A program made the translations under genes and the position numbers. From positions 20,868 to 44,867 of the forward strand of contig NZ_JAQMTY010000079.1 in NCBI RefSeq assembly GCF_028330765.1: a DNA stretch of 24,000 nt, read 5' to 3'. Positions 2,167 to 21,948 of the stretch are shown here, one piece after another. The DNA is from Spirulina subsalsa CS-330 (GTDB lineage Bacteria > Cyanobacteriota > Cyanobacteriia > Cyanobacteriales > Spirulinaceae). Each line of letters starts with the position of its first letter. The stretch's first letter is position 1. The notes below the pieces were generated by a model, which was given only the letters and a program-made list of their open reading frames with translations, made no database searches and was not told the DNA's origin.

Positions 2167-3417
2167 ATGACCTTAAATCCACCCACTCAAGCCAAAACGC
2201 GATCGTGGACTCAAGCCTTTCGCTACCTGATCCCCTTCCTGGATGGGGATGTGGCCCATTGGTCGATGGAAGCGCGATTGCTGCGGTGGTTAACGTTTCT
2301 TTGGTTATTTTTGGGGTTGATGGTGCTGTTTTCCGCCTCCTTCCCGGTGGCCGATGCGGAATATGGCGATGGGCTGTATTACTTCAAGCGTCAATTGGTA
2401 TGGATTGCCTTGGGGATGGTGGGGTTTAGTGTGGTGGTGCGATCGCCCATCCGCCGCCTCCTCAATCTGGCCCGCTGGCTGATGCCCTTTTTTGTCTTTC
2501 TCATTGTCATCACCCTCATTCCCGGCATCGGCACCACCGTCAACGGAGCCACCCGCTGGCTCACCCTCTTCTTCATTCCCCTCCAACCCTCAGAACTGAT
2601 CAAACCCGTTCTCATTTTGCAAAGTGCCTCGATCTTCGGTCGCTGGCCAAAATTGCCGTGGATTGTGCGGGGCATCTGGTTGAGCATTTTTGCCATCATG
2701 CTAGGGGCGATTCTCCTCCAACCCAACCTCAGCACCGCCGCCCTCTGTGGCATGAGTCTCTGGCTGATGGCGTTGGCTGCGGGCCTGCCCTGGCTTGCGC
2801 TCTGGGGAACGGCTGGCTCTGGTTTAGTCTTGGGACTCTTCAGTATTGGCATCCAAGACTACCAACGCCGCCGGGTGATCTCGTTCCTCAATCCCTGGGC
2901 TGACCCGATGCAGGACGGCTATCAACTGATTCAAAGTCTTTTGGCGGTGGGGTCGGGGGGCCTGTGGGGATCGGGGTATGGCCTGTCGCAACAAAAATTA
3001 TTCTACTTGCCCATTCAATACACAGACTTTATTTTTGCGGTTTTCGCCGAAGAATTTGGCCTCGTGGGCGGGATCTTGCTGCTGCTCCTCTTGGGCTGCT
3101 ATGCGACGCTGGCGGTGTGGGTGGCGCTGAAGTCTCGCTATGCAGTGCATCAACTGATTGCGATGGGGGCGATGATTTTTCTGGTGGGGCAGGCGTTGGT
3201 TAATATTGCGGTGGCTACGGGGATGCTGCCGACCACGGGGCTACCGTTGCCGTTCTTTAGCTATGGGGGCAGTTCGGTGATTGCGAGTTTAGCGATCGCG
3301 GGCCTCCTGATCCGTGTCGCCCGCGAAAGCACCGTTGCCGAAGTGGTGTCCCTCCAGGGCCGCCGCACCAAGCCCCATTCCACCCCCCCGAATCCCACCC
3401 CACCCGAAAACCCTTAA
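2167..3417 (+). CDS. ftsW: SEDS-family cell division/elongation protein (FtsW/RodA/SpoVE), FtsW-like
   Basis: 416 aa polytopic membrane protein. SEDS signatures are present: RWLTLFFIPLQPSELIKP, FIFAVFAEEFGLVGG and GLPLPFFSYGGSS. The choice of FtsW over RodA rests only on the N-terminal region (YYFKRQ). Confidence 0.8.
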   Translation: MTLNPPTQAKTRSWTQAFRYLIPFLDGDVAHWSMEARLLRWLTFLWLFLGLMVLFSASFPVADAEYGDGLYYFKRQLVWIALGMVGFSVVVRSPIRRLLNLARWLMPFFVFLIVITLIPGIGTTVNGATRWLTLFFIPLQPSELIKPVLILQSASIFGRWPKLPWIVRGIWLSIFAIMLGAILLQPNLSTAALCGMSLWLMALAAGLPWLALWGTAGSGLVLGLFSIGIQDYQRRRVISFLNPWADPMQDGYQLIQSLLAVGSGGLWGSGYGLSQQKLFYLPIQYTDFIFAVFAEEFGLVGGILLLLLLGCYATLAVWVALKSRYAVHQLIAMGAMIFLVGQALVNIAVATGMLPTTGLPLPFFSYGGSSVIASLAIAGLLIRVARESTVAEVVSLQGRRTKPHSTPPNPTPPENP

Positions 3418-3457
3418 AGCAGGGTGGTACACTGGGCTATGGGCTGATGGCCCTCTG

Positions 3458-4246
3458 TTGATTCAACTCTGCGGACTAAAATCTGTGGCTTCGCTTCGTT
3501 CTTCTCGCTCACCGGCTTGGCAACGCTTCACCCTAACCCTGCTTGCTCAGGGGGTGCGCCTTTGGCGTGATCCCCAAACTCGACGCTTGGGTCAATGGGG
3601 GGTCGGCACGGGGGGCGCGATCGCACTTTGCCTGTGGAATTGGCAACTCGTCCTCTCCACCAGTGCCGGAGTCGGGGCGATGCTCTCGGTCTATTGGCTA
3701 CAAACGGGCCAATGGCGGAAATATTGGGCCACGGTGCAGCGGGTGCTAGATGGCCCGCAACAGCCCCTTGTGATTGCGGTGGCCAGTGGGGGCGGCATGG
3801 CGATCGCCACCTATCTCGCCAGCACCCTCTGGCTCACCACCGAAAACCATTGGCTCGCCACCAGTGAAATTCTCCAAAGCATCGGCATCATCGCCATTCT
3901 CGGCCTACTGATCAGCCAGTTTCTCCACCAACACCGCCACCACCTCAACCACCGCTACGATCGCCTCGTCTGGGCCCTCAGCCATCCCAACCCGATTAAA
4001 CGCCTCTTCGCCGTCCGCAAACTGAGCCAAGCCTACCCCCGCTACAGCCGCAGCCAACGGGCACACCTGCGCGAATATTTCCTCCTCTCCCTCAGCCAGG
4101 AAGACCATCCCCGCGTCCAGCACGCCCTCGTCGCCACCCTCAACCACATCGATCCCGCCCTCCTCTCCCACACCGACCGCCAACCCCTCCACCTCCCCCT
4201 CCACCTCAAACACCCCATCCCCGAACCCCACTGGGTCGAACGATAA
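3458..4246 (+). CDS. Hypothetical membrane protein (start uncertain)
   Basis: The open frame runs 3314-4246, but its first ~35 codons overlap the ftsW 3' end and contain no Met. Likely starts are TTG 3458 or GTG 3485. It has predicted TM segments (GAIALCLWNWQLVLSTSAGVGAMLSVYW; MAIATYLASTLWL; IGIIAILGLLISQF) and no recognisable family. Confidence 0.45.
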   Translation: MIQLCGLKSVASLRSSRSPAWQRFTLTLLAQGVRLWRDPQTRRLGQWGVGTGGAIALCLWNWQLVLSTSAGVGAMLSVYWLQTGQWRKYWATVQRVLDGPQQPLVIAVASGGGMAIATYLASTLWLTTENHWLATSEILQSIGIIAILGLLISQFLHQHRHHLNHRYDRLVWALSHPNPIKRLFAVRKLSQAYPRYSRSQRAHLREYFLLSLSQEDHPRVQHALVATLNHIDPALLSHTDRQPLHLPLHLKHPIPEPHWVER

Positions 4247-4369: not shown

Positions 4370-5032
4370 CTACTCTTGAGTTTGCAGCAAACCAATAGGG
4401 CATTCTAACCCTGTCCCCCCCAGGCCACAGTAGCCGTTGGGATTCTTCGCCAGGTATTGCTGGTGATAGTCTTCGGCGTAGTAGAATTCCGGCGCGTCTA
4501 GAATTTCTGTGGTGATTTCACCATAGTTCGCGGCTTGGATCACCGCTTGATAGGCTTGCTTGGAGGCGATCGCCGCCTGCTGCTGTGCCTCAGAATAGGT
4601 GTAAATCCCGGAGCGGTATTGCGTGCCCGTATCATTCCCTTGGCGCATCCCTTGGGTCGGATTGTGGCTTTCCCAAAACACCTTAAGCAGCATTTCGTAG
4701 GGGATCACCTGGGGATCGTAGACCACCAGCACCACCTCGTTATGCCCCGTTTGCCCAGTACAGACTTCCTGATAGGTCGGATTGGGGGTTAAGCCCGCCC
4801 CATAGCCCACCGCTGTGGAATATACGCCCTCTAACTGCCAAAACTTCCGTTCCGCACCCCAAAAACACCCCAGCCCAAACATCGCCAATTCCATCCCTTC
4901 CGGAAACGGAGCTTTGAGGGGATGACCGTTAACAAAATGTTGTTTCGGAACCGGCATCGCTTGGGAGCGTCCCGGTAAGGCTTCGCCGGGGGCCGGCAAG
5001 GTTAATTTTTTACCAAAACCAAATAAACCCAT
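4370..5032 (-). CDS. msrA: Peptide-methionine (S)-S-oxide reductase MsrA
   Basis: 220 aa with the catalytic motif GLGCFWGAE. The N-terminus ([22 protein letters not shown]) and the remainder are collinear with E. coli MsrA as I recall it. Confidence 0.93.
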
Positions 5033-5357: not shown

Positions 5358-7331
5358 ATGGCCGAACAACGCCAATCCTTAGAAGAACTTACCTTGCGGC
5401 AACTGCGTAAAGTTGCCAGTGACTATAACATCTCTCGATACAGCAGAATGCGGAAATCGCAACTTCTCGCTGCTATCCAAGCGATTGAAATTGAACGCCT
5501 AGCTCCCCCCCTTTCATCTTCCGTTAACTTAGCGAGTCAACCAACCGAGGAAAAAACAGCAGTGGAAGCATCAAAGTTTGAAGTGGGTCAATACGACGAA
5601 GCCCTCCCGGATTTAGCTTCTGTGGATGCAGACTTACCCGACTTACCCAGTGGCTATGGTGAGAGTTGCATTGTGTTAATGCCTCGTGATCCCCAATGGT
5701 GTTACACCTATTGGGATATCCCCAACGACCAGAAAGAAAGCCTCCGTCGTCAGGGTGGACAACAACTCGCCCTCCGCATTTACGACGTTACCAACATCAA
5801 TCTCAACGACCAAAACCCTCAAAATACCCAAGAATACCCCTGCGATGAACTGGCCCGCGAGTGGTATTTACCGATTCCGATCAGCGATCGCGACTACATG
5901 GTCGAAATCGGCTATCGCTGCATGGATGGCCGTTGGCTCAGCCTCGCCCGTTCCGGCATCGTGCGCGTCCCCCCCGTCTACCCCTCCGACTGGATCGAAG
6001 ACCGCTTCATGACCGTAGAATGGGAACAAGAACTCGCCGGAAAATCCATCCATCACTTCGAGCAAATGGGCGGCGAAAGCATTGAAGACGAAATTCGCCG
6101 CCGGATGCGCGAACTCGAAGAAGTCGCCGCCACCAAACGCCAAGCCGGTTCCATGTTCCGCGCCGAAGAAAGCCTCAGCTCCTACATCTTCCCCTCTGGG
6201 ATCGGTCAATGGGCCTCTGGTGCTGGCATGTCCGGAGCAGGTTTAACCATGTCCGGTGCGGGGATGTCTGGGGCAGGCTTAACTATGTCCGGTGCTGGCA
6301 TGTCCGGTGTGGGTTTAACTATGTCCGGTGCTGGCATGTCCGGTGCAGGCATATCCGGTGCAGGCTTAACCATGTCCGGTGCAGGTGTTTCCGGTGCAGG
6401 GATAATGTCTGGTTATGGCATGGGTGAAACCCTCGTCTCCGGCATGGGCATGATGTCTGGCATGGGCATGATGTCCGGTTATGGCATGGGCGAAACCCTC
6501 GTATCCGGTATGGGCATGATGTCCGGGGCAGGCTTAACGATGTCCGGTATGGGCTTAACCGCTTCGGGTGCGGGCTTAACCATGTCCGGTTACGGAATGT
6601 CCGGCTTCGGCATGGGTGAAACCCTCGTCTCCGGCATGGGCATGATGTCCGGTTATGGCATGGGCGAAACCCTTGTCTCCGGCATGGGCATGATGTCTGG
6701 CGCAGGTTTAACGATGTCTGGCATGGGCTTCACCGCTTCGGGTGCGGGCTTAACGATGTCTGGTTATGGGATGTCCGGCTACGGGATGTCTGGCATGGGC
6801 ATGATGTCTGGGGCAGGCTTAACCGCTTCTGGATCTGGTATGGGCATGATGTCTGGTTATGGGATGTCCGGCTACGGGATGTCCGGCATGGGCATGATGT
6901 CTGGGGCAGGTTTAACCGCTTCTGGGTCTGGTATGGGCATGATGTCTGGGGCAGGTTTAACGATGTCCGGGGCTGGCCTCAGTGGCTTAACCATGTCCGG
7001 TTACAACATGTCCGGCGTTGGTTTTTCCGCCTCTGCCCCGCCGATTCGCCCCCGCAAATTCTGGCTTGTGGCCGATGCTGAATTGATCGTCTACGGCGCA
7101 ACGGAACCCGATGCCACCGTCACCATTGGCGGTCGTCCGATTAAGCTCAACGAAGACGGAACATTCCGGTTCCAAATGTCCTTCCAAGATGGCCAACTGG
7201 ACTACCCGATCATGGCGGTGGCCTCCGATGGTGAACAAACCCGTGCGATCCACATGGAATTTGAACGCCAAACGCCATCCCGCCACACCAATACACGGGA
7301 AGAGGCAACCCTAGAATGGTTCGACGCTTAA
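5358..7331 (+). CDS. Rho_N-domain / DUF4912-like protein with a long Met/Gly/Ser-rich repeat region
   Basis: 657 aa. The N-terminus LTLRQLRKVASDYNISRYSRMRKSQLLAAIQ resembles the Rho termination factor N-terminal (SAP-like) domain. CIVLMPRDPQWCYTYWDIP...LALRIYDVT resembles DUF4912. A C-terminal beta-rich module (FWLVADAELIVYGATEPDATVTIGGRPIKLNEDGTFRF) is present. The central ~270 aa is low-complexity repeat. Confidence 0.75.
   Translation: MAEQRQSLEELTLRQLRKVASDYNISRYSRMRKSQLLAAIQAIEIERLAPPLSSSVNLASQPTEEKTAVEASKFEVGQYDEALPDLASVDADLPDLPSGYGESCIVLMPRDPQWCYTYWDIPNDQKESLRRQGGQQLALRIYDVTNINLNDQNPQNTQEYPCDELAREWYLPIPISDRDYMVEIGYRCMDGRWLSLARSGIVRVPPVYPSDWIEDRFMTVEWEQELAGKSIHHFEQMGGESIEDEIRRRMRELEEVAATKRQAGSMFRAEESLSSYIFPSGIGQWASGAGMSGAGLTMSGAGMSGAGLTMSGAGMSGVGLTMSGAGMSGAGISGAGLTMSGAGVSGAGIMSGYGMGETLVSGMGMMSGMGMMSGYGMGETLVSGMGMMSGAGLTMSGMGLTASGAGLTMSGYGMSGFGMGETLVSGMGMMSGYGMGETLVSGMGMMSGAGLTMSGMGFTASGAGLTMSGYGMSGYGMSGMGMMSGAGLTASGSGMGMMSGYGMSGYGMSGMGMMSGAGLTASGSGMGMMSGAGLTMSGAGLSGLTMSGYNMSGVGFSASAPPIRPRKFWLVADAELIVYGATEPDATVTIGGRPIKLNEDGTFRFQMSFQDGQLDYPIMAVASDGEQTRAIHMEFERQTPSRHTNTREEATLEWFDA
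6217..7030 (+). repeat. In-frame nested tandem repeats (basic 21-nt unit encoding MSGAGLT; higher-order units)
   Basis: Reiterated atgtccggtgc(a/t)ggcttaac(c/t) units. Higher-order blocks recur: SGYGMGETLVSGMGMMSG x4, MGMMSGAGLTMSGMG(L/F)TASGAGLTMSGYGMSG x2, and YGMSGYGMSGMGMMSGAGLTASGSGMGMMSG x2. Confidence 0.9.
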
Positions 7332-7400
7332 CCACAATCTCTATGCCGATTAACGGACAATTGAAATAGCGCAATCGAGCAAGGCTCATGTCTTGATCTA

Positions 7401-7436
7401 TCTAGCCCTGGTTTTCACAACTGGGGCTAGATTTTT
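7401..7436 (+). terminator. Candidate rho-independent terminator of the DUF4912-like gene
   Basis: tctagccc (7401-7408) pairs with gggctaga (7424-7431), followed by ttttt (7432-7436), about 70 nt after the stop codon. Confidence 0.55.
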
Positions 7437-7590
7437 GCGATTCAGTTTCACGATCGCACCTTTTTCTCTCGTGATGCGATCGCCCCCCTTGGAACTTAAT
7501 CCCCCCCAACCACGTCCGCAATCTATAGAAAATATCGGGTTAATTCTGCCGTCACTCAATCCCTGTTGTTATCGATCGCTCCTTAAAAAA

Positions 7591-8370
7591 ATGACTATGC
7601 GTTTATCTCGCCTTTCTCTCACCGCCCTTGGCTTTTCCCTCCTCAGTACCATGGTGCTCGGTAATGCGCTCTCGGTCTCGGCCCAATCCACCAACGAGCC
7701 AGCGGCAGAGGAAGCCGATGTCGTTGTTGAGCCCGTAGACAATCCCCGCTTTTCCTGTCAATCCATGGATGCAACCCCCACCGTTGCCTACAGCCCCGTC
7801 GAACAACCCAATCAACAGTACGCCTGGGCAGCCCCCCGCAGCTTAGGCGGCGGCTGGACCGCAGAACGACGTTGTGCAGAGATTAGCCGCCGCCTCGAAG
7901 AATATCGCCCCGATGGTTTGGTGGAACTCAGCACCGGCATGGAAAACGGCTATGACACCATCTGTGTGACCACCGAGGATGATCCCACCTGTCGCATCGT
8001 CTTAACTGTTCCCCCCGGTCAAGACCCAATCGCCACCCGCGACAGCGTGTTCAATAACCTCACCCTCGCCAACAGCGGCCAACAAACCCAAGGCGTTCCC
8101 ACACTCCAAGACCGCAACCGTCCCGGCAATATTCTCGGTGATTTGCGTCAAGTGGGCGATATTTTCGGCGTGGACTTACCCGGTGGTGGTGCAGCGAATC
8201 CCGCACCCTCCCGATCCAACTTCGGTGGCATTAACCTCCGCCCCTTCCTCGCCCCCTCCGATCGCGGCACCGGTGAACAGTTAAATCTCCGCTCCTCTGC
8301 ACCGATCCCCACCACGCCCTCCAATCGTCGCCCCGCTCCCCAGGGTTTACCGATTGATTTTGATATCTAG
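7591..8370 (+). CDS. Secreted COP23-like (circadian oscillating polypeptide 23 family) protein
   Basis: From ATG 7591 there is a signal peptide (MTMRLSRLSLTALGFSLLSTMVLGNALSVSAQS). It is followed by RFSCQ...PTVAY...WAAPRSLGGGWTAERRCAEISRRLEEY...LSTGMENGYDTICVTT...C.IVLTVPPGQDP, which fits my memory of the cyanobacterial COP23 domain pattern. The upstream part of the ORF (7393-7590) begins at TTG and looks non-coding. Confidence 0.6.
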   Translation: MTMRLSRLSLTALGFSLLSTMVLGNALSVSAQSTNEPAAEEADVVVEPVDNPRFSCQSMDATPTVAYSPVEQPNQQYAWAAPRSLGGGWTAERRCAEISRRLEEYRPDGLVELSTGMENGYDTICVTTEDDPTCRIVLTVPPGQDPIATRDSVFNNLTLANSGQQTQGVPTLQDRNRPGNILGDLRQVGDIFGVDLPGGGAANPAPSRSNFGGINLRPFLAPSDRGTGEQLNLRSSAPIPTTPSNRRPAPQGLPIDFDI

Positions 8371-8417
8371 AACGTTCCTACGGTGACAGGTTGCTTCTGT
8401 GTGTTATGTTCCCAAGT

Positions 8418-8441
8418 CCCTACGGTGTAGGGGCTTTTTTT
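8418..8441 (+). terminator. Candidate rho-independent terminator of the COP23-like gene
   Basis: ccctac (8418-8423), loop ggt, gtaggg (8427-8432), then gc and a run of 7 T (8435-8441). Confidence 0.6.
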
Positions 8442-8510
8442 GTGCTACTGCTCAAAATGGTGCAGCGTAGATCATCGGAGCAAACAGGATGATTAAGGCA
8501 GGAAGACGGT

Positions 8511-9311
8511 ATGGAAGCAGCGGTACAGGACTATCACGAGCGGGGGTTTACGGTGGTGCGGGGTCAATTCGGCGGGGCGGCGTTGGGGGCGATCGCTACG
8601 GCAACGGCGGCCTGTTTTGAAGCGATGAATGATGCGATCGCTCGCCATGGCCCAGCCCACATTCCCCTGCCCCCGTCCTACCGCTTCGACCCCTATTCCA
8701 CCGCCCTCAACCCCATCGCCCTCGAAGATTTCGGCCTCGCCTCCTTCGCCGCTACGCTCCGAGCTTGTCTCACCGCTGCCCCGGATGGGCTGGCATTGTT
8801 GGACGCGATCGGCGGTTTCACCCACTGCACCCTAACCCGCGCCACTCTCCGCCAACAATACGCCCCCCATCGCGCCCACCCGCTCCACCACCCCAACCGC
8901 TGGCATCAAGAAGGGGCCTACGGTGTGACGTTTCCACCCCAGCCCGATGCGCCGCCCCACTGCACCACACCCCCCACGCCGATGGTGACGCTGTGGCTCC
9001 CCCTCACCCCCTGCGGCATCGATGCCCCCAGCCTCGAACTCTATCCCATCCCCCAAACGCAGCTTTTCCACTATCACGCCCTCAGCGATCGCACCCTCGC
9101 CGCCCACTTCGCCCCCACCCCGCCAGAACTCTTACCCCTAGAACCGGGGGACGGGGTCTTGGTGCATTGGGGGACGTTACACCGCAGCGGGGTACGAGCC
9201 GGCATGAGGTGCGATCGCTTCAGTCTCGGCCTCCGCTGGTTCAATCCGACGCAGATCCCAAAAAGTTTAAGGGGCGATCGGTGGCTGATACGCTCAAACC
9301 TTTGGGTATGA
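8511..9311 (+). CDS. Putative Fe(II)/2-oxoglutarate oxygenase, phytanoyl-CoA dioxygenase (PhyH)-like; 3' end possibly remodelled
   Basis: The N-terminus YHERGFTVVRGQF is typical of PhyH-family proteins. Candidate metal ligands are WHQEG (HxE/D) and a distal H in GTLHRSG. The assignment is weak. The last ~28 codons lie inside the segment bracketed by the 21-bp direct repeats. Confidence 0.4.
   Translation: MEAAVQDYHERGFTVVRGQFGGAALGAIATATAACFEAMNDAIARHGPAHIPLPPSYRFDPYSTALNPIALEDFGLASFAATLRACLTAAPDGLALLDAIGGFTHCTLTRATLRQQYAPHRAHPLHHPNRWHQEGAYGVTFPPQPDAPPHCTTPPTPMVTLWLPLTPCGIDAPSLELYPIPQTQLFHYHALSDRTLAAHFAPTPPELLPLEPGDGVLVHWGTLHRSGVRAGMRCDRFSLGLRWFNPTQIPKSLRGDRWLIRSNLWV
9207..9227. repeat. 21-bp direct repeat, left copy (aggtgcgatcgcttcagtctc)
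   Basis: A perfect match to 10019-10039. It contains a HIP1 octamer and lies inside the 3' end of the PhyH-like CDS. Confidence 0.85.
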
Positions 9312-9351
9312 TCATCTGTAAGAACATTAAAAAATCGTGGAGGCTTAACCC

Positions 9352-9579
9352 ATGAACCACTTGTTAGCCGAAATGATCCAAAAAATCCAGATATTATCTG
9401 AACCGGATCAGAATCGTATTGCTAAAGATGTTATACAGTCCATTGATCGCATCCTCCAACAGACACAAGAAACGCCAAATTGTTCTCTCGTTCAGATGTT
9501 GCGATTGCCTATCTTAGATGAAGAGGAAATAATCTGTTTTGAGCGAGACAAGGATACAGGACGAGATTTTATTTTATGA
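9352..9579 (+). CDS. Putative antitoxin partner of VapC (VapB-like)
   Basis: A 75-aa ORF immediately upstream of the PIN toxin, with a 4-nt ATGA stop/start overlap (9576-9579). The composition is AT-rich and unlike the flanks. Confidence 0.6.
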   Translation: MNHLLAEMIQKIQILSEPDQNRIAKDVIQSIDRILQQTQETPNCSLVQMLRLPILDEEEIICFERDKDTGRDFIL

Positions 9580-10007
9580 AATATCTTCTGGATACTTGCG
9601 CTTTATCAGAATACTTGAAGAAAAAGCCGGATCACTCAGTGCTCTCTTGGATGTCTGAACAGGATGAGAATGCGTTATTTCTCAGTATTTTGACCATTGG
9701 TGAAATCAAAAAAGGGATTGTCAAGATAGAAAATCTTCATCCTGAAAAAGCCAGGATGTTATCGCAGTGGCTTGATAGCATAGAAGCGCGGTTTACATCT
9801 CGTATTCTGCCAATTGAGCAGGATGTGATTGATGTATGGGCAAAAATGTGTGGTGAAGCGTTGAGACGGGGGCAAAAACTTCCTGTCATTGATAGTTTAA
9901 TTGCTGCAACCTGTCGCTATCACAATTTGAACTTAGTGACTCGCAACGTTAAGGATTTTTCGATGATGAATGTTACTTTAATTAATCCTTGGAGTGGGGA
10001 GAAATGA
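9576..10007 (+). CDS. vapC: Type II toxin-antitoxin system VapC-family toxin (PIN domain)
   Basis: 143 aa. MKYLLDTCALSEY (first acidic residue), LSILTIGEIKKG and LVTRNVKDF are typical PIN/VapC motifs, and the gene is translationally coupled to the upstream small ORF. Confidence 0.85.
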   Translation: MKYLLDTCALSEYLKKKPDHSVLSWMSEQDENALFLSILTIGEIKKGIVKIENLHPEKARMLSQWLDSIEARFTSRILPIEQDVIDVWAKMCGEALRRGQKLPVIDSLIAATCRYHNLNLVTRNVKDFSMMNVTLINPWSGEK

Positions 10008-10018
10008 TGAGAAAATTC

Positions 10019-10039
10019 AGGTGCGATCGCTTCAGTCTC
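10019..10039. repeat. 21-bp direct repeat, right copy (aggtgcgatcgcttcagtctc)
   Basis: A perfect match to 9207-9227, lying 12 nt after the vapC stop codon. Confidence 0.85.
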
Positions 10040-10081
10040 AACCCCGCTCATACCTCTGCCCTCACAAACGATCTAACAATG

Positions 10082-10501
10082 CTAACTGAGGCTTTTTTCA
10101 ATGGCCTGGGATGGGCTGGATGATGTCGCTTGGGGTTCACCTGCTCCGGTCAGGGGGCAGGCGCAGGGGTCTTGGGCGAGCCATTGGGAGCCGACGGTGT
10201 GGAGGGCGGCGAGGACGGGGCGGAGGGATTCGCCTTTGGGGGTGAGGGTGTATTCAACGTGGGGGGGGACTTCGGCGTAGACGCGGCGTTCGGCGAGGCC
10301 GTAGGTGGTGAGGGTGCGGAGGCGGGCGCTGAGGGTTTTGGTGCTGATGCCGGGGAGGGCTTTGAGGAGTTCGTGGGTGCGGCGATCGCCCCCAAACAGT
10401 TCCCGCAGGATCAAGATTGACCATTTATTCCCCAACAGATCCACCACATATTGAATCGGGCATTGGGTCACGGGGGCGGCGCAATTGTCCGGGTTTGCCA
10501 T
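10082..10501 (-). CDS. HxlR-family winged-helix transcriptional regulator
   Basis: CPIQYVVDLLGNKWSILILRELFGGDRRTHELLKALPGISTKTLSARLRTLTTYGLAERRVYAEVPPHVEYTLTPKG is a textbook HxlR (DUF24) domain. The start is set at ATG 10501 (MANPDNCAAP); the ORF-track extension to 10600 is AT-rich promoter-like sequence. Confidence 0.88.
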   Translation of the reverse strand: MANPDNCAAPVTQCPIQYVVDLLGNKWSILILRELFGGDRRTHELLKALPGISTKTLSARLRTLTTYGLAERRVYAEVPPHVEYTLTPKGESLRPVLAALHTVGSQWLAQDPCACPLTGAGEPQATSSSPSQAIEKSLS

Positions 10502-10727
10502 GCGGATTACCTTGTGTTTTTTCTTTTGATTAATCCAGATTGGCGGGCGTACTGTCGCCCTTTGCCCGGAAAACTTAATAATTTGTAGAATCAGCCTCAA
10601 CCCCTGACGGCATCCTAATTGTTTCCCTTGGGAAACTTAGGGGTAGAGTCGGAAACCCTCTTGTCGGCTTGGGGGGCTTGCGCAAGGATGGGAGAACTTG
10701 AATGAACTTTCTTGCGAATTGCACCCT

Positions 10728-11804
10728 ATGGTTACTGCGTTGCCGACTCCCCAAATCGATGAGATTCGCCCCGGCGTGAAGGCTCCGGTGAAGGAAACTC
10801 TTTTGACACCGCGCTTTTATACGACGGATTTTGAGGCGATCGCCAAAATGAGCCTCGCGTCCCAAGCCGATGAACTCGAAGCGGCGATCGATGAACTCAG
10901 AGCCGACTACAATCGCCATCACTTCGTCCGCGATGATGAGTTTAACCAAGCCTGGGATCAATTGCCGGAACATGTGCGATCGGTGTTTGTTGATTTTCTT
11001 GAACGGTCTTGTACCTCGGAATTTTCCGGGTTTCTCCTCTTTAAAGAACTGTCACGCCGCCTCAAAACCGATAGCCCGAAACTCGCTGAAGCCTTTGGCC
11101 TCTTGGCACGGGATGAAGCGCGGCACGCGGGCTTTTTAAATAAGGCGATGGCGGATTTTGGTGTGTCTCTGGATTTGCGCTATCTGACGAAAAAACGCTC
11201 CTATACATTTTTCCCGCCGGAATGGGTGATCTATACGGTGTACCTTTCGGAAAAAATCGGGTATTGGCGTTATATTTTGACCTTTCGCCATTTGGAAAAG
11301 CAGCCGGAATATCAAATTTATCCGCTGTTTCGCTATTTTGAGCAGTGGTGTCAGGATGAGAATCGCCATGGGGATTTCTTTAAGGTGTTGTTGCGATCGC
11401 AGCCTAAACTTTGGAAAACTTGGACTTCTCGCCTCTGGGCCCGCTTTTTCCTGTTAATTGTGTTCGTTACTCATACCTTGACGGTGTTTGAGCGATCGGA
11501 TTTTTATGAAATGATCGGCCTTGATGCGAAAACCTATAACCGGGATGTGATTCGCAACACCAATGAAACCTCACTGCGGGCGTTTCCGGCGGTGTTGGAT
11601 ACGAGCCATCCGGACTTTTTCCGCCTCATGGAAGACTGTTCGGACGCGAATTTGGAGTTAACGCGCCTCAGTGAGAGCGATCGCCCGGCTTGGCTCAAAG
11701 CCCTGCAAAAATTGCCCCTCCAGGCCCGCATCGCTGGGAATATCCTGCGTCTCTATTTCCTCAAATCCATTGACGCGGAAGCGCAACGCGCCACGGTGCA
11801 TTAA
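10728..11804 (+). CDS. acsF: Magnesium-protoporphyrin IX monomethyl ester (oxidative) cyclase, aerobic (AcsF/ChlE)
   Basis: IRPGVKAPVKETLLTPRFYTTDF, plus di-iron carboxylate motifs (DEARHAGF; QDENRHGDFF), match AcsF. The start is chosen at ATG 10728 (MVTALPTPQIDEIRPG) by analogy with other cyanobacterial AcsF N-termini. Confidence 0.93.
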   Translation: MVTALPTPQIDEIRPGVKAPVKETLLTPRFYTTDFEAIAKMSLASQADELEAAIDELRADYNRHHFVRDDEFNQAWDQLPEHVRSVFVDFLERSCTSEFSGFLLFKELSRRLKTDSPKLAEAFGLLARDEARHAGFLNKAMADFGVSLDLRYLTKKRSYTFFPPEWVIYTVYLSEKIGYWRYILTFRHLEKQPEYQIYPLFRYFEQWCQDENRHGDFFKVLLRSQPKLWKTWTSRLWARFFLLIVFVTHTLTVFERSDFYEMIGLDAKTYNRDVIRNTNETSLRAFPAVLDTSHPDFFRLMEDCSDANLELTRLSESDRPAWLKALQKLPLQARIAGNILRLYFLKSIDAEAQRATVH

Positions 11805-11984
11805 GGCCATTTTAAAGTTGGTTGGGTGCATCCCACTGTTGCAGATTTCCATGGCTCGCCAGGGATCACCCTCATCCCCAGCCCTTCTCCCGCAGGAGAA
11901 AGGAGCCAAAAGCCCTCTCCCTCAGGAGAGGGTTGGGTGAGGGATTGCATAGCTGGGATGCACTCAGTTGGTTCACGCTGGTTC

Positions 11985-12019
11985 CCCCGTCTCCTGGCAT
12001 GAGGAGATGGGGGATTTTT
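11985..12019 (+). terminator. Candidate rho-independent terminator after acsF
   Basis: ccccgtctcc (11985-11994) pairs with ggagatgggg (12003-12012), with one G-U position, followed by g-a-ttttt (T run 12015-12019). Confidence 0.5.
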
Positions 12020-12081
12020 GCAGCGGTTGGCACTGGCTCCATCCTGTACCCTAGAGGCACAGACTCCACCCGTAACAACCG

Positions 12082-12768
12082 ATGCCCTCTGTAACCCTGT
12101 ATAGCTCCAACCGCTGCCCCTACGCCCACCGCACCCGCCTAACCTTGACGGCAAAGGGGGTAGAGTTTGAACGAGTCGAAATTGACCTTGACCATAAGCC
12201 GGAGAATTTTCACGAGATTTCTCCCTACGGAAAAGTGCCGGTGTTGGTGGTGGGGAGCGATCGCATTTGGGAATCCGCAATTATTAATGAATATATTGAT
12301 GAAGTATTTCCCGATCCGCCCCTGCTGCCCACCTTACCGGGAGAGCGGGCGATCGCTCGGATTTGGATCGACTTTGTGAACACCAAATTCACCACGGCCT
12401 TTTATAAACTTCTCCTCGCCCAAGACCCCGCCCAACAAGACCAGTGGCGCGAAGAACTGTACCACCATTGCCGCTTCCTCGAAACCGAAGCCCTCCAACC
12501 GGATCAGCCCTACATCCTCGGTGATACCTTGAGTTTGGTGGATATTTCCATTTATCCCTGGTTGGAGCGGTGGTCTGCGATCGCCGCCCATCGTCAATTT
12601 CCCCTCCCCGCCGACTGTCCGCGCCTCCAGCACTGGTGGCACACCCTCCAACAACACCCCACGATCCAAACCTGGCAAAACGACCCCGCCCAATATGTCG
12701 AAGACTATCGCCGCTATGCCAACAACACCGCCACCAGCACCACCGCCCAAGAACTGCGCCAACCCTAA
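12082..12768 (+). CDS. Glutathione S-transferase family protein
   Basis: 228 aa. The thioredoxin-like N-terminal GST domain is present (LYSSNRCPYAHRTRLTL..KGVEFE..EIDL..KPE.F..ISPYGKVPVL...ESAIINEYIDE), as is a helical C-terminal domain. Confidence 0.85.
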   Translation: MPSVTLYSSNRCPYAHRTRLTLTAKGVEFERVEIDLDHKPENFHEISPYGKVPVLVVGSDRIWESAIINEYIDEVFPDPPLLPTLPGERAIARIWIDFVNTKFTTAFYKLLLAQDPAQQDQWREELYHHCRFLETEALQPDQPYILGDTLSLVDISIYPWLERWSAIAAHRQFPLPADCPRLQHWWHTLQQHPTIQTWQNDPAQYVEDYRRYANNTATSTTAQELRQP

Positions 12769-12831: not shown

Positions 12832-13554
12832 ATGTCAAAATCAACGATTAATCATGCAATTGGTCAAGGGGAGCACAGCACCGTGACAGTTCAAGACATC
12901 ATCGATAAAGGCGGGGTCGCCATCTGGCCCTTACTCTTCCTCTCCGTTCTCGCCATGGGGGCAATTTTCGATCGCCTCTGGTTTTGGTCGCGTGTCCTGC
13001 TTCAAGAGCGGCAAATCCTGATGAGCGTCATGGACACCGCCTATCGTAACTGGGATGCCGCCGTCGAAGTCGCCCGCGACTACCGCGAGCATCCCATGGG
13101 TCGATTTCTCTATACCCCGCTTCATCTCACCCAACCCGAACCGGAGGTGTTTCATCTCGCCCTCGAAGCCGCCGCCGATGACGAACTGGCGATGATGCGC
13201 CGAGGCGATAAAATCCTCGAAGCCGTGATCGCCCTGTCGCCCTTACTCGGCCTCCTCGGTACAGTCTTGGGGCTGATTAATTCCCTCGGCTCGATCAGCA
13301 TTAGCGACCTTGGAACCGCCTCCACCGCCGGGGTCACGTTGGGGATCGGGGAATCGCTAATTTCCACTGCTGCCGGACTGGTGGTGGCGATTATTAGCCT
13401 CGCGTTTTATCGTCTCTTTCAGGCCTTTCTCTTCGGTCAAATCCGCGTTTTCCGCAAGGCCGGCAGCGATCTCGAAGTGCTCTATCGCCAACGGTGGATC
13501 GAAGCAGAACAGATGAAACAACCCCCCAGCCCGAAAAAAATCCTTGAGATTTAA
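12832..13554 (+). CDS. exbB: MotA/TolQ/ExbB proton-channel family protein
   Basis: 240 aa with three TM segments. The conserved C-terminal core is [17 protein letters not shown]...[23 protein letters not shown]. The gene is followed directly by an ExbD-like gene. Confidence 0.85.
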
Positions 13555-13625
13555 ATCTGGTAATTGGGTGGGAAATGCCCATCCCACCGGCCCGAATTCT
13601 CTCCAGTTCGCCCCTTAAAATTCTG

Positions 13626-14330
13626 ATGAGTCAATCCCCCTCTACGCCTCCGAAAAAACGTGCCCCGGCCCCGGCGGCCCATCCCCTCCAGCTTTGGCAA
13701 GATAACCACAAACAAGAGGAAGTGCGGATTGAGATTATTCCGCTGATTGATGTGATTTTTTGTATTTTGACGTTTTTTATTTTGGCGGCGGTGGGGGTGT
13801 CGCGGCAGCAGGCGATTAGTTTGAACTTGCCGAAGGCGACGACGGGCACGGCGCAGATGCAGGAGATGTTGATCATCAGTTTGGATGATTTTGGGCAGGT
13901 GTATGTGGAGCAAAATCCGGTATCAACGCGAAACCAATTGTTTCAGGCGGTGGAGAGTTATTTTGCGACGCGGCCGGATGGGTTGATGGTGTTGTATGCG
14001 TCGAAGGAGGCGCGGTATGACGAGGTGATTCAGGTGTTGGATATTTTGCGAGAAGTGGGGGGCGATCGCGTCGCCTTAGCCACGCTCCCCGAAGGTCAAA
14101 CCCCGCAATCGGTTGAGCCTAACCCGATTGATCCCAACATGATCCCCAACGGTCTCCCCGACAGTGAACTCCCGCCGGACTTTGGACAACCCGGCCTCGA
14201 TCCCCTTGCCCCTAGTCCAGATAGTACCTTTCCCCCCACGGATGCCCCCGATTCCCTCGCTCCCCTCGGAGCACCGCCTATTCCCACCCCAGACCCGGAG
14301 CCGAATTTACCGGCTCTCCCAGCGGAGTAA
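13626..14330 (+). CDS. exbD: ExbD/TolR-family biopolymer transport protein with a Pro-rich C-terminal tail
   Basis: IEIIPLIDVIFCILTFFIL (TM) is followed by the ExbD periplasmic domain (ISLNLPKA...LIISLDDFGQVYVE...VLYASKEARYDEVIQVLDILREVG). ATG 13626 is preferred over the 13575 ORF start. The last ~80 aa are Pro/Asp-rich. Confidence 0.8.
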   Translation: MSQSPSTPPKKRAPAPAAHPLQLWQDNHKQEEVRIEIIPLIDVIFCILTFFILAAVGVSRQQAISLNLPKATTGTAQMQEMLIISLDDFGQVYVEQNPVSTRNQLFQAVESYFATRPDGLMVLYASKEARYDEVIQVLDILREVGGDRVALATLPEGQTPQSVEPNPIDPNMIPNGLPDSELPPDFGQPGLDPLAPSPDSTFPPTDAPDSLAPLGAPPIPTPDPEPNLPALPAE

Positions 14331-15342
14331 GGCCGGCGCGATCGCGGTCAACTTGCCAGCGTTTGAGGGCGCGGGAAAAGGCACTCAGCCCAGAGAAACC
14401 GAGGAGATAGGCCACTTCACTTTTGGTGAGGTCATCTTGGGTGAGGAGTTTGGCGGACATTACTTGGCGCACATCATCGAGGAGTTGGGTGAAGGTGGTT
14501 CCCTCCCGTTGGAGGTGATGTTGCAGGCTGCGGGAACTCATCATCAGGCAGGTGGCGACTTCCTGGATCGTGGGCAGATGGCCGTAGAGACTGATGGCGA
14601 GGATTTGCCGAACCCGATCGCTCACCAGATTGCCCACCGATTGCGTCAGGAGTACCTGCCCCTGCTGCTCAAACAGGTTAAAAAAATGGGGATTCGCCCC
14701 AATCACCGGCAACGTCAGCATCCGGCGATCGATCACGCAATAGGTTTCCTCGCCGCCAAACTGAAACGCCACATCGCCGAACGTCTCCCGATGCACCGTC
14801 AAGCCTGGATCATCGGATGGCGCAGCATAGTGAAATCCCATGCGTTGAATCAACTGGGTTTCCCGCCCCACCAACCGATCAAAAATACATTTGAGCGCAG
14901 ACATCACATAATCCACCACATACCGCTCCGCCGGATGCCAACCCATCTCACTGCTGGCGATCGCCAACTGCACAACCGTCGCATCTTGGCGCACCACAAA
15001 CCGCTCCACATCCGCCAACAGCCGCTCATACTGGGTCAAGATCGTCAACGCATCCCCCAGCGTTGGTGCATTCATCATCATGTAGCCCACCACCCCCAAG
15101 CTATTCAACAGCGCGTAGCGACCGAGCTTTAAGCCAATCTGTAGATCCTGAGTGACGCGGGCCAGTTCGTCCCACATGGCCCAGGCTTGCAGTACCGGAA
15201 AACGCGCCCCCGCTTGCAGCAGCATGGCCTGATCAATGCCGACTCGCCGCATCATGGGGGCGATCGCCACTCCGTGCGCTTGGGCCATTTGGAGAAAGGT
15301 ATAGATGAGGTGGGCAGAGACAGTCGGAGAACGCTGGAGCAT
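14278..15342 (-). CDS. AraC-family transcriptional regulator (N-terminal AraC-type ligand-binding domain plus C-terminal HTH)
   Basis: 354 aa. The C-terminal HTH_18 signature is present (TIQEVATCLMMSSRSLQHHLQREGTTFTQLLDDVR...SEVAYLLGFSGLSAFSRALKRW). The 3' end overlaps the exbD 3' end convergently by ~53 nt. Confidence 0.85.
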   Translation of the reverse strand: MLQRSPTVSAHLIYTFLQMAQAHGVAIAPMMRRVGIDQAMLLQAGARFPVLQAWAMWDELARVTQDLQIGLKLGRYALLNSLGVVGYMMMNAPTLGDALTILTQYERLLADVERFVVRQDATVVQLAIASSEMGWHPAERYVVDYVMSALKCIFDRLVGRETQLIQRMGFHYAAPSDDPGLTVHRETFGDVAFQFGGEETYCVIDRRMLTLPVIGANPHFFNLFEQQGQVLLTQSVGNLVSDRVRQILAISLYGHLPTIQEVATCLMMSSRSLQHHLQREGTTFTQLLDDVRQVMSAKLLTQDDLTKSEVAYLLGFSGLSAFSRALKRWQVDRDRAGLTPLGEPVNSAPGLGWE

Positions 15343-15567
15343 TGCACTAATTCGGATGCTTTACAAAATTTCACGGGGCATTGTGCATAAGGCCAAACTT
15401 TTGGCGTTGTCGGCCAACCTCATTTTTGATTAACCCTTTCATAATGCAACAAATAGCATCTTCACCATCATCATCGGGTGAATATTTCAGGTCGTCGTTG
15501 GCTCGATGTCTGAGGTTCAGCAGATCGTAAAGTGCATTTTTAATCCTGACATTTGCCCTCAACCCCC

Positions 15568-16572
15568 ATGTCTACCTCCTTAAAACTCTCTCGAAAACGT
15601 GACGCGATCACACCTTCTCCCAAAACAATGCCTTCCCAAAAAGGTGCGATCGCACCCCCCACGACCACCCTCCCCCCTGGGGCGTTGATTGATAATGTCA
15701 GCCAAGCCGCGCCAACCGTGCAACGGCAAGCCACCGGAGCAACCGCCGCCCCGGTCGAAATTGAATCCGAAATTCACCGCGCCCAAGGCAGCGGCCAAGC
15801 CCTCGACCCGCAGCTACAGCGTTCCATGGGTCAAGCCATGGGAGCCGATTTCAGCCATGTCAAAGTCCACACCGATCGCACCTCAGATACGCTCAACCAC
15901 GCCCTCCAAGCCAAAGCCTTCACCACCGGCAGCGATGTCTTTTTCCGCCAAGGGGAATACAACCCCAGCAGCAAAGGCGGCCAAGAACTGATCGCCCACG
16001 AACTCACCCACGTCGTCCAGCAAACCGGCGCAGCGGTGCAACGTCAACACGATCCGATCATTCAACGCCTAGGTTTGTCAGACGCATCAAAACACCTCAC
16101 TTCCCCTGATCCGGCTGCCGATCAAGTAGCACGGGCCGACTTTATTCGAGACAATTTTAGTGATTTTTGGTTTCGACTCCGGATGGATCGGCCATTATGT
16201 GATGCAACATTAGACTTTACTGATAAAAATCTTGCCGGTGAAAACCTGAGAATCATTCGAGATGCCTACCATGCGTCGATTGGTTTGCCGGCCATTTTCG
16301 ATCAATATATTCCCTATGATGGGCCTGATTATGTCAATATTGGCTCTCGTTTGAGAGATCGATTAATCGCCCAAGGTCGAGATAATTTTACGATGACAGA
16401 TATGGAAGAAGTATTAAGAGAATTAGCTGGCCCCGTGAGAACTATAATTCACAATGAACGAAGTAAGCCAGCATTTGCAGCCGATTACATTGCGATGTCC
16501 GATGCGTTTGGATATGGTGCTGGAGGGGGGCGTGAGCGAACTCGGGGGCGGGGTGATGCTAGTGCAGACTAA
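15568..16572 (+). CDS. DUF4157-like HExxH domain protein with an unrelated AT-rich C-terminal domain (copy 1)
   Basis: The core GSGQALDPQLQRSMGQAMGADFSHVKVHTDRTSDTLNHALQAKAFTTGSDVFFRQGEYNPSSKGGQELIAHELTHVVQQ matches the DUF4157 pattern as I remember it, with HELTH encoded at 15997-16011. The ATG at 15568 is preferred over TTG 15553. The C-terminal ~170 aa have no recognisable family. Confidence 0.8.
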   Translation: MSTSLKLSRKRDAITPSPKTMPSQKGAIAPPTTTLPPGALIDNVSQAAPTVQRQATGATAAPVEIESEIHRAQGSGQALDPQLQRSMGQAMGADFSHVKVHTDRTSDTLNHALQAKAFTTGSDVFFRQGEYNPSSKGGQELIAHELTHVVQQTGAAVQRQHDPIIQRLGLSDASKHLTSPDPAADQVARADFIRDNFSDFWFRLRMDRPLCDATLDFTDKNLAGENLRIIRDAYHASIGLPAIFDQYIPYDGPDYVNIGSRLRDRLIAQGRDNFTMTDMEEVLRELAGPVRTIIHNERSKPAFAADYIAMSDAFGYGAGGGRERTRGRGDASAD

Positions 16573-16718
16573 TAATGATGCTTGAATATCTTTCTATTAC
16601 GTTCATTCCCTTAATTTTGGATCATGAAATAGAGGCTACTCAGTATAGGAAAAAAGTTAGTCAAAAATCTCTAGAGGTTGATCGCAAGCAATAGAAATTC
16701 ACGATAAAAAAAAGACTC

Positions 16719-18656: not shown

Positions 18657-18901
18657 TCAGGGGCGATCAACTATCTGGCTAACGTGAGTTTGATGAACAG
18701 AAAGGGGCAAGAAAAACGCTGAGACTGAAAAAAAGAAAGCCCCGACTCAGCAATAAATACCAATTCAACCCAAGAAAACCGTCTGGATGTGACATTCCGC
18801 AAGTTACTCAAACATTGCTCCATCAATGGTGCGTCAGATTGATGAATTCATGATGATATATAGCGATCTTAAATCAATCGGAGATCTTATCTCCTCATCA
18901 A

Positions 18902-18921
18902 CAAGGGGCTTCAGCCCCTTG
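18902..18921. terminator. Perfect 8-bp hairpin between convergent genes (possible bidirectional terminator)
   Basis: caaggggc ttca gccccttg. A second small hairpin, ggagat ctt atctcc, lies at 18880-18894. There is no clear T run on either side. Confidence 0.3.
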
Positions 18922-19035
18922 CCTGTTCATGAATCAAATAGGATTGCTATAGAGGGTTGAATGGTCTGACGCATCATTCAGTACCATCATTTGTCTGAAC
19001 CTGCGGAAAGTGAGTTAGAACCCTCTGCCATCTGG

Positions 19036-21669: not shown

Positions 21670-21811
21670 GGTGTCACCTATCGAAGCTGAGGAATATACG
21701 GAATCTATGCGGAATTTTGCCCTCAGTTTTGATCGGGCATTACGGGAGTTTATAACATCATGAGAGGTGAATTGAAATACGACTTTAGTCTAGATTTTTA
21801 AATCACCTTCT

Positions 21812-21840
21812 ATTGTTTTCACTTGACAAGTGAAAACAAT
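21812..21840. promoter_or_regulatory. Perfect 13-3-13 inverted repeat (candidate operator) in the divergent promoter region
   Basis: attgttttcactt gac aagtgaaaacaat, read directly from the sequence. It contains TTGACA (21823-28), and a TACAAT hexamer lies at 21851-56. Confidence 0.5.
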
Positions 21841-21948
21841 TCTGGTTCGTTACAATGTGGGTAAATAGTAAATCTTGAAAAGAAGTGAATCTATCATTGA
21901 TAACTCAAAAGAGATACTTGTTTAAAACCGATTCAGCGATATAAAGCG

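Follow-up and report, generated by a model that had tools for sequence, protein, structure and literature searches.

A methionine-rich SGxG tandem array in a cyanobacterial Rho_N/DUF4912 protein: a peptide motif kept by selection and a candidate self-cohesive tether

The window analysed here is a stretch of 24,000 nucleotides (nt) from the cyanobacterium Spirulina subsalsa CS-330 (contig NZ_JAQMTY010000079.1, positions 20,868 to 44,867), and this text concerns one complete gene within it, which encodes a protein of 657 amino acids (aa) containing a Rho_N domain, a DUF4912 domain, a methionine (Met)-rich tandem array of SGxG units and a C-terminal bacterial immunoglobulin-like (Ig-like) domain (Table 1). 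The peptide motif of the array is under purifying selection. It is proposed, with moderate confidence, that the array is a flexible, multivalent and self-cohesive tether, an intrinsically disordered, uncharged and mildly hydrophobic series of a selected motif placed between two folded halves of the protein. In such an arrangement, the array would join the basic half, composed of Rho_N and the fibronectin type III (FN3)-like DUF4912, to the highly conserved Ig-like domain. In the motif, M-S-G-x-G leads up to a hydrophobic residue; at this place the window array has Met, Leu, Tyr or Phe, and relatives have Ile or Trp besides. Weak “stickers” would be provided by the regularly spaced Met, Leu and aromatic side chains, with the Ser-Gly stretches serving as spacers. 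The copy number would set the reach and valency of the tether; it shifts fast through unequal recombination in the array, with concerted evolution in each lineage and selection keeping the motif. Self-cohesion and tethering, as well as condensate or gel formation and redox switching of Met, are properties that we infer for the array. The likeness to phase-separating or hydrogel-forming domains, suggested in a preliminary description made from the DNA letters, would be compatible with the predicted disorder, the lack of charge and the regularly spaced hydrophobic residues.

The composition of the array is extreme. Its 270 residues consist of G88, M54, S44, A22, L18, T18, Y9, V7, E4, F3, I2 and N1; Gly thus makes up 33%, Met 20% and Ser 16%, Lys, Arg, His, Cys and Pro are absent, and the four Glu are the sole charged residues. 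The preliminary description had placed the array at 6217-7030, 1 nt and 5 nt away from the limits found here, and its count of 54 Met is exact. In the 13 other long open reading frames (ORFs) of the window Met accounts for 2.1% of residues, which gives P(>=54 of 270) = 1.6e-35. Shannon entropy is 2.78 bits in the array vs ~4.1 bits in the flanking domains. The grand average of hydropathy is +0.54, hydrophobic residues lie mostly 2-3 positions apart, and 52 [GS]-hydrophobic-[GST] triplets are present, 8 of them [GS]Y[GS]. When the array is cut at SG, 44 units are obtained, 40 of them SGxG, with lengths of 5 aa (15 units), 6 aa (10), 7 aa (13) and 10 aa (4). A short tandem motif had been proposed correctly, but not its form: the supposed basic 7-mer MSGAGLT occurs only 7 times, the 21-nt period gives just a weak local signal in Tandem Repeats Finder, and the actual unit is built on SGxG and a hydrophobic residue and varies from 5 to 10 aa, with no fixed 7-mer. 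At the N-terminal boundary, G283 of the first unit, SGIGQW, is invariant and S280, G281 and W285 are nearly so in two family alignments.

Above the level of units, nested repeats are observed. Tandem Repeats Finder, which had been suggested as a check, reported periods of 36/72 nt at 6219-6386, 174 nt at 6459-6788 (x1.9, 90%) and 93 nt at 6755-6949 (x2.1, 97%). The higher-order blocks described earlier do exist: GMGETLVSGMGMMSG is present four times, preceded by SGY in three copies and by SGF in one; the 93-nt duplication codes one 31-aa block twice exactly (aa 467-497 and 498-528); and a block of about 54 aa occurs twice, the copies of the 174-nt duplication, 88.9% identical in DNA, sharing 51 of 54 residues (aa 367-420 vs 425-478). 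The comparison of copies points to selection. Of the 33 codons that differ in four independent pairs, 30 do so synonymously, whereas the array’s own codons lead one to expect 24.6% (P = 1e-15). The ratio of synonymous to nonsynonymous codon differences is 7:0, 3:1 and 5:1 for the 36-nt copies and 14 to 3 for the 174-nt copies. In the whole window, repeat copies are 81-97% identical in DNA and nearly identical in protein. From the synonymous excess it follows that the peptide motif is under purifying selection and that most duplications are not very recent. The recent expansion claimed in the preliminary description therefore applies to the 93-nt duplication, which is the youngest event, but not to the other copies, in which DNA identity is 81-89% while the protein is nearly the same.

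Whether the region could be an assembly artefact had been raised as a concern, and the answer is twofold. The array is real, as supported by orthologs, by the synonymous divergence and by the intact frame (across the array the only stop-free reading frame is that of the ORF itself), but its exact copy number in the window should be taken as provisional, because a public contig breaks inside it. This contig, JAQMTZ010000216.1 (locus L093, assembly GCA_028330205.1), comes from essentially the same genome and equals window 6837-10331 over 3495 nt apart from a single mismatch, located 3 nt from the contig end. It stops at window nt 6837, inside the 93-nt duplication, and its gene model is a 5'-truncated one of 164 aa. 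Several other family entries (e.g., P0270, P0273 and P0290) are likewise fragments starting inside the array. The array breaks short-read assemblies, and gene models of the family are therefore often truncated. Among close relatives the array length is variable, as had been expected: in P0294, whose N-terminal part is 85% and whose C-terminal part is 95% identical to the window protein, the array has 329 aa vs 270 here, 25% Met and its own higher-order blocks. In P0290, the 101-aa C-terminal part is identical to that of the window, and the array tail differs by insertions and deletions of whole units.

The full-length query retrieved 3212 proteins at E <= 1e-3, and all the named ones are cyanobacterial; the best homologs span 100% of the query. 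The N-terminal 286 aa alone gave 4112 cluster representatives, and a scan of a genome collection with a single-protein query gave 9 loci. Arrays in the family contain from 0 to 75 units, with a median of 5.5 in 256 distinct proteins, 128 of which have five or fewer. The commonest form in metagenome loci is a protein of ~410-420 aa with just 2-3 units right before the C-terminal domain, and the shortest members still keep 2-3 units there. In the 80 arrays of at least 15 units the motif is M(58%)-S-G-[V 55, A 18, I 12, M 9%]-G-[M 51, L 29%]-[S/T]; the x position is V, A or I in 85%, and units are spaced chiefly by 5 and 7 residues. Met enrichment, which the preliminary description feared might be missing from orthologs, is common to them, with a median of 14.5% in these 80 arrays, and the 20% of the window array belongs to the top 9%. 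In 8 of the 80, Met is below 5% and L, I, T, Y or W is found instead, so Met is strongly preferred in the family but not obligatory. The dominant unit depends on the lineage (SGVGMTT, SGVGMQM, SGIGLTA, SGAGLL or SGVGLYSE, with SGMGMM also among the variants), and this pattern is read as a signature of concerted evolution within arrays. Another motif, AGS(L/I)FGSMQ(H/Q)V(P/A)GS, precedes the array (alignment A2, columns ~340-470) and is tandemly multiplied in some orthologs, e.g., P0116 and P0062. The rarity claimed for the repeat is borne out: a search with the repeat alone yielded 23 proteins among 5.8 billion, and all the classifiable ones belong to the same family except one sponge protein. 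In this protein, P0280 of Ephydatia muelleri, ~28 MSGAG units in tandem are joined to a GIDA-like domain; no other match lies clearly outside the family, and its repeat is probably convergent.

The folded domains said earlier to flank the repeat were recovered, Rho_N and DUF4912 by Pfam, and the beta-rich C-terminal module by AlphaFold2 (with a 68-sequence alignment as input) and weak Ig-like matches. The N-terminus MAEQRQSLEELTLRQLRK lines up with orthologs in the family alignments, aa 1-50 are basic (isoelectric point ~10), and the Rho_N helices 13-22 and 33-48 have a predicted local distance difference test (pLDDT) score of 83-91. DUF4912 scores 149.7 bits vs a cutoff of 29.4, with profile positions 1-117 of 118 covered. 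The model’s only matches in PDB, obtained with Foldseek, are FN3 domains (E 2e-4 to 5e-3, template modelling score on target 0.5-0.7); the output comes without query coordinates, and the matches are assigned to the DUF4912 sandwich because the alignments are ~100-118 columns long. Over aa 258-574 the model contains no secondary structure, and the array has pLDDT 27-40, similar to the 23-41 in the array of a short ortholog; the prediction of disorder is based on these AlphaFold2 values. The C-terminal domain is the best-conserved part of the family, and the nearly invariant MSGVGFSASxPPIRPRKFW stands directly before it. A weak Pfam Glucodextran_B match in 23 of 29 diverse members (best E 8.9e-6) and Big_6 in 17 of 29 indicate that this domain is bacterial Ig-like. 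In the family alignment Rho_N, DUF4912, the SGxG units and the conserved C-terminal FWLVADAELIVYGATEPDA domain are collinear, and all four have invariant columns. No solved structure was matched significantly by sequence, whether the query was the N-terminal half, the C-terminal domain or a C-terminal profile, no NCBIfam family is matched by the 657-aa protein, and in Pfam at E <= 1 only the weak Glucodextran_B match was added to Rho_N and DUF4912. Since the N-terminus is a Rho_N domain and a signal peptide is absent, the protein should be cytoplasmic.

The window protein is a member of the DUF4912/Rho_N family, the cyanobacterial “Rho-like” proteins such as All2705. The domain order is the same, and its identity to Spirulina and Roseofilum proteins is 54-60%. 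The literature on DUF4912, cyanobacterial Rho_N and cyanobacterial Met-rich low-complexity domains yielded no functional study and no paper describing the array, and within the family, for which no function is described, the Met content of the window array is among the highest of the long arrays. The only paper found that discusses the family states, in the passage concerned, that it is conserved across the cyanobacterial phylum and is devoid of the RNA-binding and ATPase domains of Rho; that passage is silent on the repeat (PMC13613805). The N-terminal helical subdomain (Pfam Rho_N) is shared with transcription termination factor Rho. However, Rho also contains an RNA-binding cold-shock domain and a RecA-type hexameric ATPase, and neither was found by Pfam in the window protein, the model of which consists of beta sandwiches and short helices only. 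Identity with the Rho factor was ruled out on these grounds. Large paralogs of 800-1600 aa (P0064, P0068, P0082, P0083, P0098, P0044 and P0121-P0130) are devoid of Rho_N; they begin with either a PstS-like periplasmic-binding domain or a hydrophobic stretch, after which comes a probable membrane-spanning segment, and contain 2 to ~10 DUF4912 copies, and many retain SGxG units and the C-terminal domain. As these paralogs swap Rho_N yet retain DUF4912, the array and the Ig-like module, the sequences suggest that the latter three form an effector and the N-terminus an interchangeable anchor.

The most probable alternative to the tether, although it has only a minor share of the probability, is that the SGxG-hydrophobic units are short linear motifs for a folded partner, such as the protein’s own DUF4912 or Ig-like domain, ZipN or FtsZ; expansion would then raise avidity, with no self-cohesive phase. 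Beside the highly conserved C-terminal domain, two or three units are nearly invariant, and this holds for the shortest proteins as well; the folds on both sides of the array are sandwiches of a kind typical of protein binding, and the synteny with zipN described below would fit too. However, the units are docked on neither domain in the AlphaFold2 models, whether of the long form or of the short one, and the wide variation between lineages (SGVGLYSE, SGAGLL, SGMGMM) is not obviously tolerable for a specific ligand site.

Another explanation, considered unlikely, treats the Met-rich array as a redox device, either a sacrificial Met sink for reactive oxygen species or a switch in which oxidation releases cohesion and the neighbouring MsrA resets it. 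The Met content, 20% here and 25% in P0294, agrees with it, and the Met-rich low-complexity domain of yeast Pbp1 is redox-regulated in this way. In the window, msrA is divergent from the array gene across a spacer of 325 base pairs, and genes for a rubrerythrin-domain protein, a glutathione S-transferase and an HxlR-type regulator are present. The msrA gene is divergently adjacent also in L094 and, interrupted by an insertion sequence (IS), in L004. However, these are 3 of 95 loci; msrA is not next to the family gene in the other 92, among which are the Spirulina major and S. subsalsa loci with arrays just as rich in Met, and L004 has the msrA neighbour yet only 3 units. As a conserved partner of the family, msrA was therefore rejected. 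Moreover, the 8 of 80 long arrays with less than 5% Met imply that Met cannot be essential to the core function of the family. In the spacer between msrA and the family gene, aligned from the three genomes, only HIP1-type GCGATCGC sites and -35-like TTGAC blocks were seen, with no clear shared operator. As for the surroundings of these msrA genes, the one in L004 (4210-5673) is split by a 290-aa transposase-like ORF or IS element, and a PBP2/FtsI-like gene lies upstream (2289-4091), both identified by eye. In L094 (4027-6673), the closest full-length relative, msrA, pipX, a YggS/PipY-like gene, sepF and proC are located upstream, the last four of which we take to be a cyanobacterial gene group.

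The array could also be viewed as a spacer of neutral function, growing and shrinking by replication slippage and unequal recombination, so that the mere presence of a linker would matter. The range from 0 to 75 units, with about half of the sampled proteins having five or fewer, and the fast turnover of array organisation among close relatives are in line with this. Nevertheless, we consider it improbable, given the strong synonymous excess between copies and the motif kept across relatives whose non-repeat regions are ~50% identical; charged residues and Pro, common in neutral linkers, are also excluded here apart from the four Glu. A regular fold of the array, a pentapeptide-like beta helix or other solenoid, is very unlikely: marginal PDB matches to designed pentapeptide-repeat proteins (E 0.005-0.07) and the many 5-residue units favour it, but units of 5, 6, 7 and 10 aa are interleaved without the fixed register of Pentapeptide beta helices, no Pfam Pentapeptide match appears at E <= 1, AlphaFold2 predicts no secondary structure, with pLDDT below 40 or thereabouts, in the long and short forms, and the PDB matches are composition-driven, for which reasons the beta-helix reading was rejected. 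Binding of Cu(I) or Ag(I) by the Met clusters, as in CopA, PcoC, CusF and Ctr1, is barely credible: the array does hold 9 MxM, 14 MxxM and 9 MM motifs, but clusters in those proteins are exported and often accompanied by His, and Met-only copper sites are typical of oxidising compartments, whereas this protein has no signal peptide and should be cytoplasmic, its array has no His or Cys, Met-poor orthologs exist, and no copper genes lie nearby in any locus examined.

The proposed tether can be set against several known systems. Pbp1/ataxin-2 and other Met-rich prion-like domains show high Met content and disordered low complexity, like the window array, and a methionine sulfoxide reductase is a plausible partner in the case of both Pbp1/ataxin-2 and the window protein. 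However, Met-rich prion-like domains are Gln/Asn-rich, while Gln plus Asn account for 1 of 270 residues in the window array and Pro for none, so its composition is not prion-like; it also differs from Pbp1 in being a strict short tandem repeat of a bacterial protein with Met-poor orthologs. The [G/S]Y[G/S] motifs of FUS and the FG repeats of nucleoporins follow a sticker-and-spacer grammar, in which a hydrophobic or aromatic residue is flanked by Gly/Ser, as in the window array. In the latter, the sticker is mainly Met or Leu, and homology is not indicated; the stickers of FUS and nucleoporin FG repeats are also spaced much more sparsely than the 2-3 residues seen here. The Gly/Met-rich elastomer abductin, elastin-like domains and lamprin, which are extracellular animal matrix proteins, resemble the array in their Gly-rich, uncharged and hydrophobic short tandem repeats, and the ortholog P0019 has a precomputed Pfam Lamprin match, which the window protein does not have. 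The typical value of 2P+G in these proteins is ~0.6 or more, whereas the window array, with no Pro and in a protein that should be cytoplasmic, reaches 0.33 and does not qualify as an elastomer by this measure.

The gene neighbourhood offers a lead, not a proof, for a link to cell division. Among the 51 loci for which 4 kb or more of upstream sequence is available, 23 have the family gene downstream of zipN/ftn2 in the same orientation; zipN/ftn2 encodes an essential FtsZ tether, and the domains of this neighbour are DnaJ, Arm_PDR, ARC6 and ARC6-like_IMS. A divergent pdhA precedes zipN in most zipN-linked loci, and the block of divergent pdhA, zipN/ftn2 and the family gene is seen in 24 loci, e.g., L003, L017, L033, L047, L050 and L084. 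Inserted IS630, IS605/TnpB, Mem_trans or FGE-sulfatase genes separate zipN from the family gene in some of them. Because ZipN identity among the linked loci goes down to 42% and the intervening genes, where present, are mostly transposases or single unrelated genes, the comparison points to an old direct adjacency, with the ancestral position of the gene directly downstream of zipN/ftn2. A functional link to cell division is suggested by this position. In Anabaena PCC 7120, zipN is all2707, followed by all2706 (PMC6391411), and all2705 is annotated as “Rho termination factor”, its protein having been detected by proteomics (PMC8147232); All2705 would then be the Anabaena ortholog. A search for all2706 by published primers among the loci retrieved gave only noise at 4 mismatches. 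Other division or cell-wall neighbours occur in single lineages (ftsX in Spirulina major, sepF in L094 and the PBP2/FtsI-like gene in L004) and are anecdotal.

Several observations weigh against the tether and its link to division. In the AlphaFold2 models, the motif makes confident contact with neither of the folded domains. The sample of relatives is partly biased, as the query of the first search contained the repeat. At the window locus zipN is not present, and pdhA, with no functional link to division, shares the zipN block, so the synteny could reflect inheritance and not function. A bolder version of the proposal, to which we give a low probability, would see in the family an undescribed division-linked scaffold, anchored by Rho_N to nucleic acid (and to the membrane in paralogs), with a condensate or gel that is dissolved by Met oxidation and restored by MsrA. 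Were this so, bacteria would have a parallel to the redox-sensitive low-complexity domain of Pbp1, one that ties division or nucleoid organisation to how oxidised the photosynthetic cell is.

Table 1. Features of the array gene and the adjacent msrA, in window coordinates.
Feature	Position	Strand	Basis
msrA, peptide methionine sulfoxide reductase	4370..5032	-	Pfam PMSR E 2e-60
Complete gene, 657-aa Rho_N / DUF4912 / SGxG-array / Ig-like protein	5358..7331	+	ORF list, homologs
Rho_N, SAP-like helix-extended-helix, aa 8-40	5379..5477	+	Pfam PF07498 E 2.7e-10, 40.5 bits vs cutoff 24.9
DUF4912, aa 100-214, FN3-like beta sandwich	5655..5999	+	Pfam PF16258 E 5e-44; AlphaFold2 pLDDT 86-96
Predicted alpha helix, aa 242-261, between DUF4912 and array	6081..6140	+	AlphaFold2, pLDDT ~60
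First unit SGIGQW, aa 280-285, N-terminal boundary of array	6195..6212	+	Family alignments
SGxG-hydrophobic tandem array, aa 287-556 (270 aa), predicted disordered	6216..7025	+	Composition, Tandem Repeats Finder, AlphaFold2
Three 36-nt units coding SGAGMSG(A/V)GLTM, DNA identity 81-86%, peptide nearly identical	6216..6323	+	Tandem Repeats Finder period 36
174-nt higher-order duplication, copies 6456-6617 and 6630-6791	6456..6791	+	Tandem Repeats Finder 174 x1.9
93-nt duplication, copies 6756-6848 and 6849-6941, 96.8% identical	6756..6941	+	Tandem Repeats Finder, copy comparison
C-terminal bacterial Ig-like beta sandwich, aa 574-635	7077..7262	+	AlphaFold2 six strands, pLDDT 55-79; family alignment

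The remaining genes of the window are of various kinds. An FtsW/RodA-family gene lies two genes further upstream of msrA, and a 310-aa ORF at 3314-4246, with no Pfam or NCBIfam match, overlaps its end by ~100 nt, its GTG start being probably wrong. Downstream of the array gene, a homolog of COP23 (circadian oscillating protein) is found at 7393-8370; judging by the public gene call in L093, which has 259 aa, the TTG start listed for it probably lies too far upstream. Genes for an HxlR-type regulator (- strand), a 368-aa rubrerythrin-domain protein and a glutathione S-transferase/glutaredoxin-like protein follow at 10082-12768, so that, together with msrA, redox genes are abundant in this part of the window. 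An ExbB/ExbD (MotA/TolQ-type) pair occupies 12832-14330, and an AraC-family regulator lies on the opposite strand at 14278-15342. In 15553-23946, genes for eCIS_core proteins (15553-16572, + strand; 19036-21669, - strand) are interleaved with those for two paralogous AAA ATPases with a winged-helix domain (16719-18656 and 21949-23946), and this stretch may be a toxin or injection-system-related cassette. No RNA family of Rfam was found in the window, and a scan for promoters and terminators around the array gene gave nothing above shuffled expectation.

To our knowledge, cyanobacteria lack Rho, and the Rho-like family would be expressed in Anabaena if All2705 is the ortholog. The central segment of the window protein, judged from its sequence and that of its relatives, is not junk but a selected motif array, which a search of 5.8 billion proteins shows to be nearly confined to this family. 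Also new are the fast evolution of copy number with the motif kept and the probable ancestral position of the gene directly downstream of zipN/ftn2. The array may therefore be regarded as a candidate bacterial low-complexity scaffold with unusual Met-based chemistry, in a widely conserved protein that has a plausible link to cell division.

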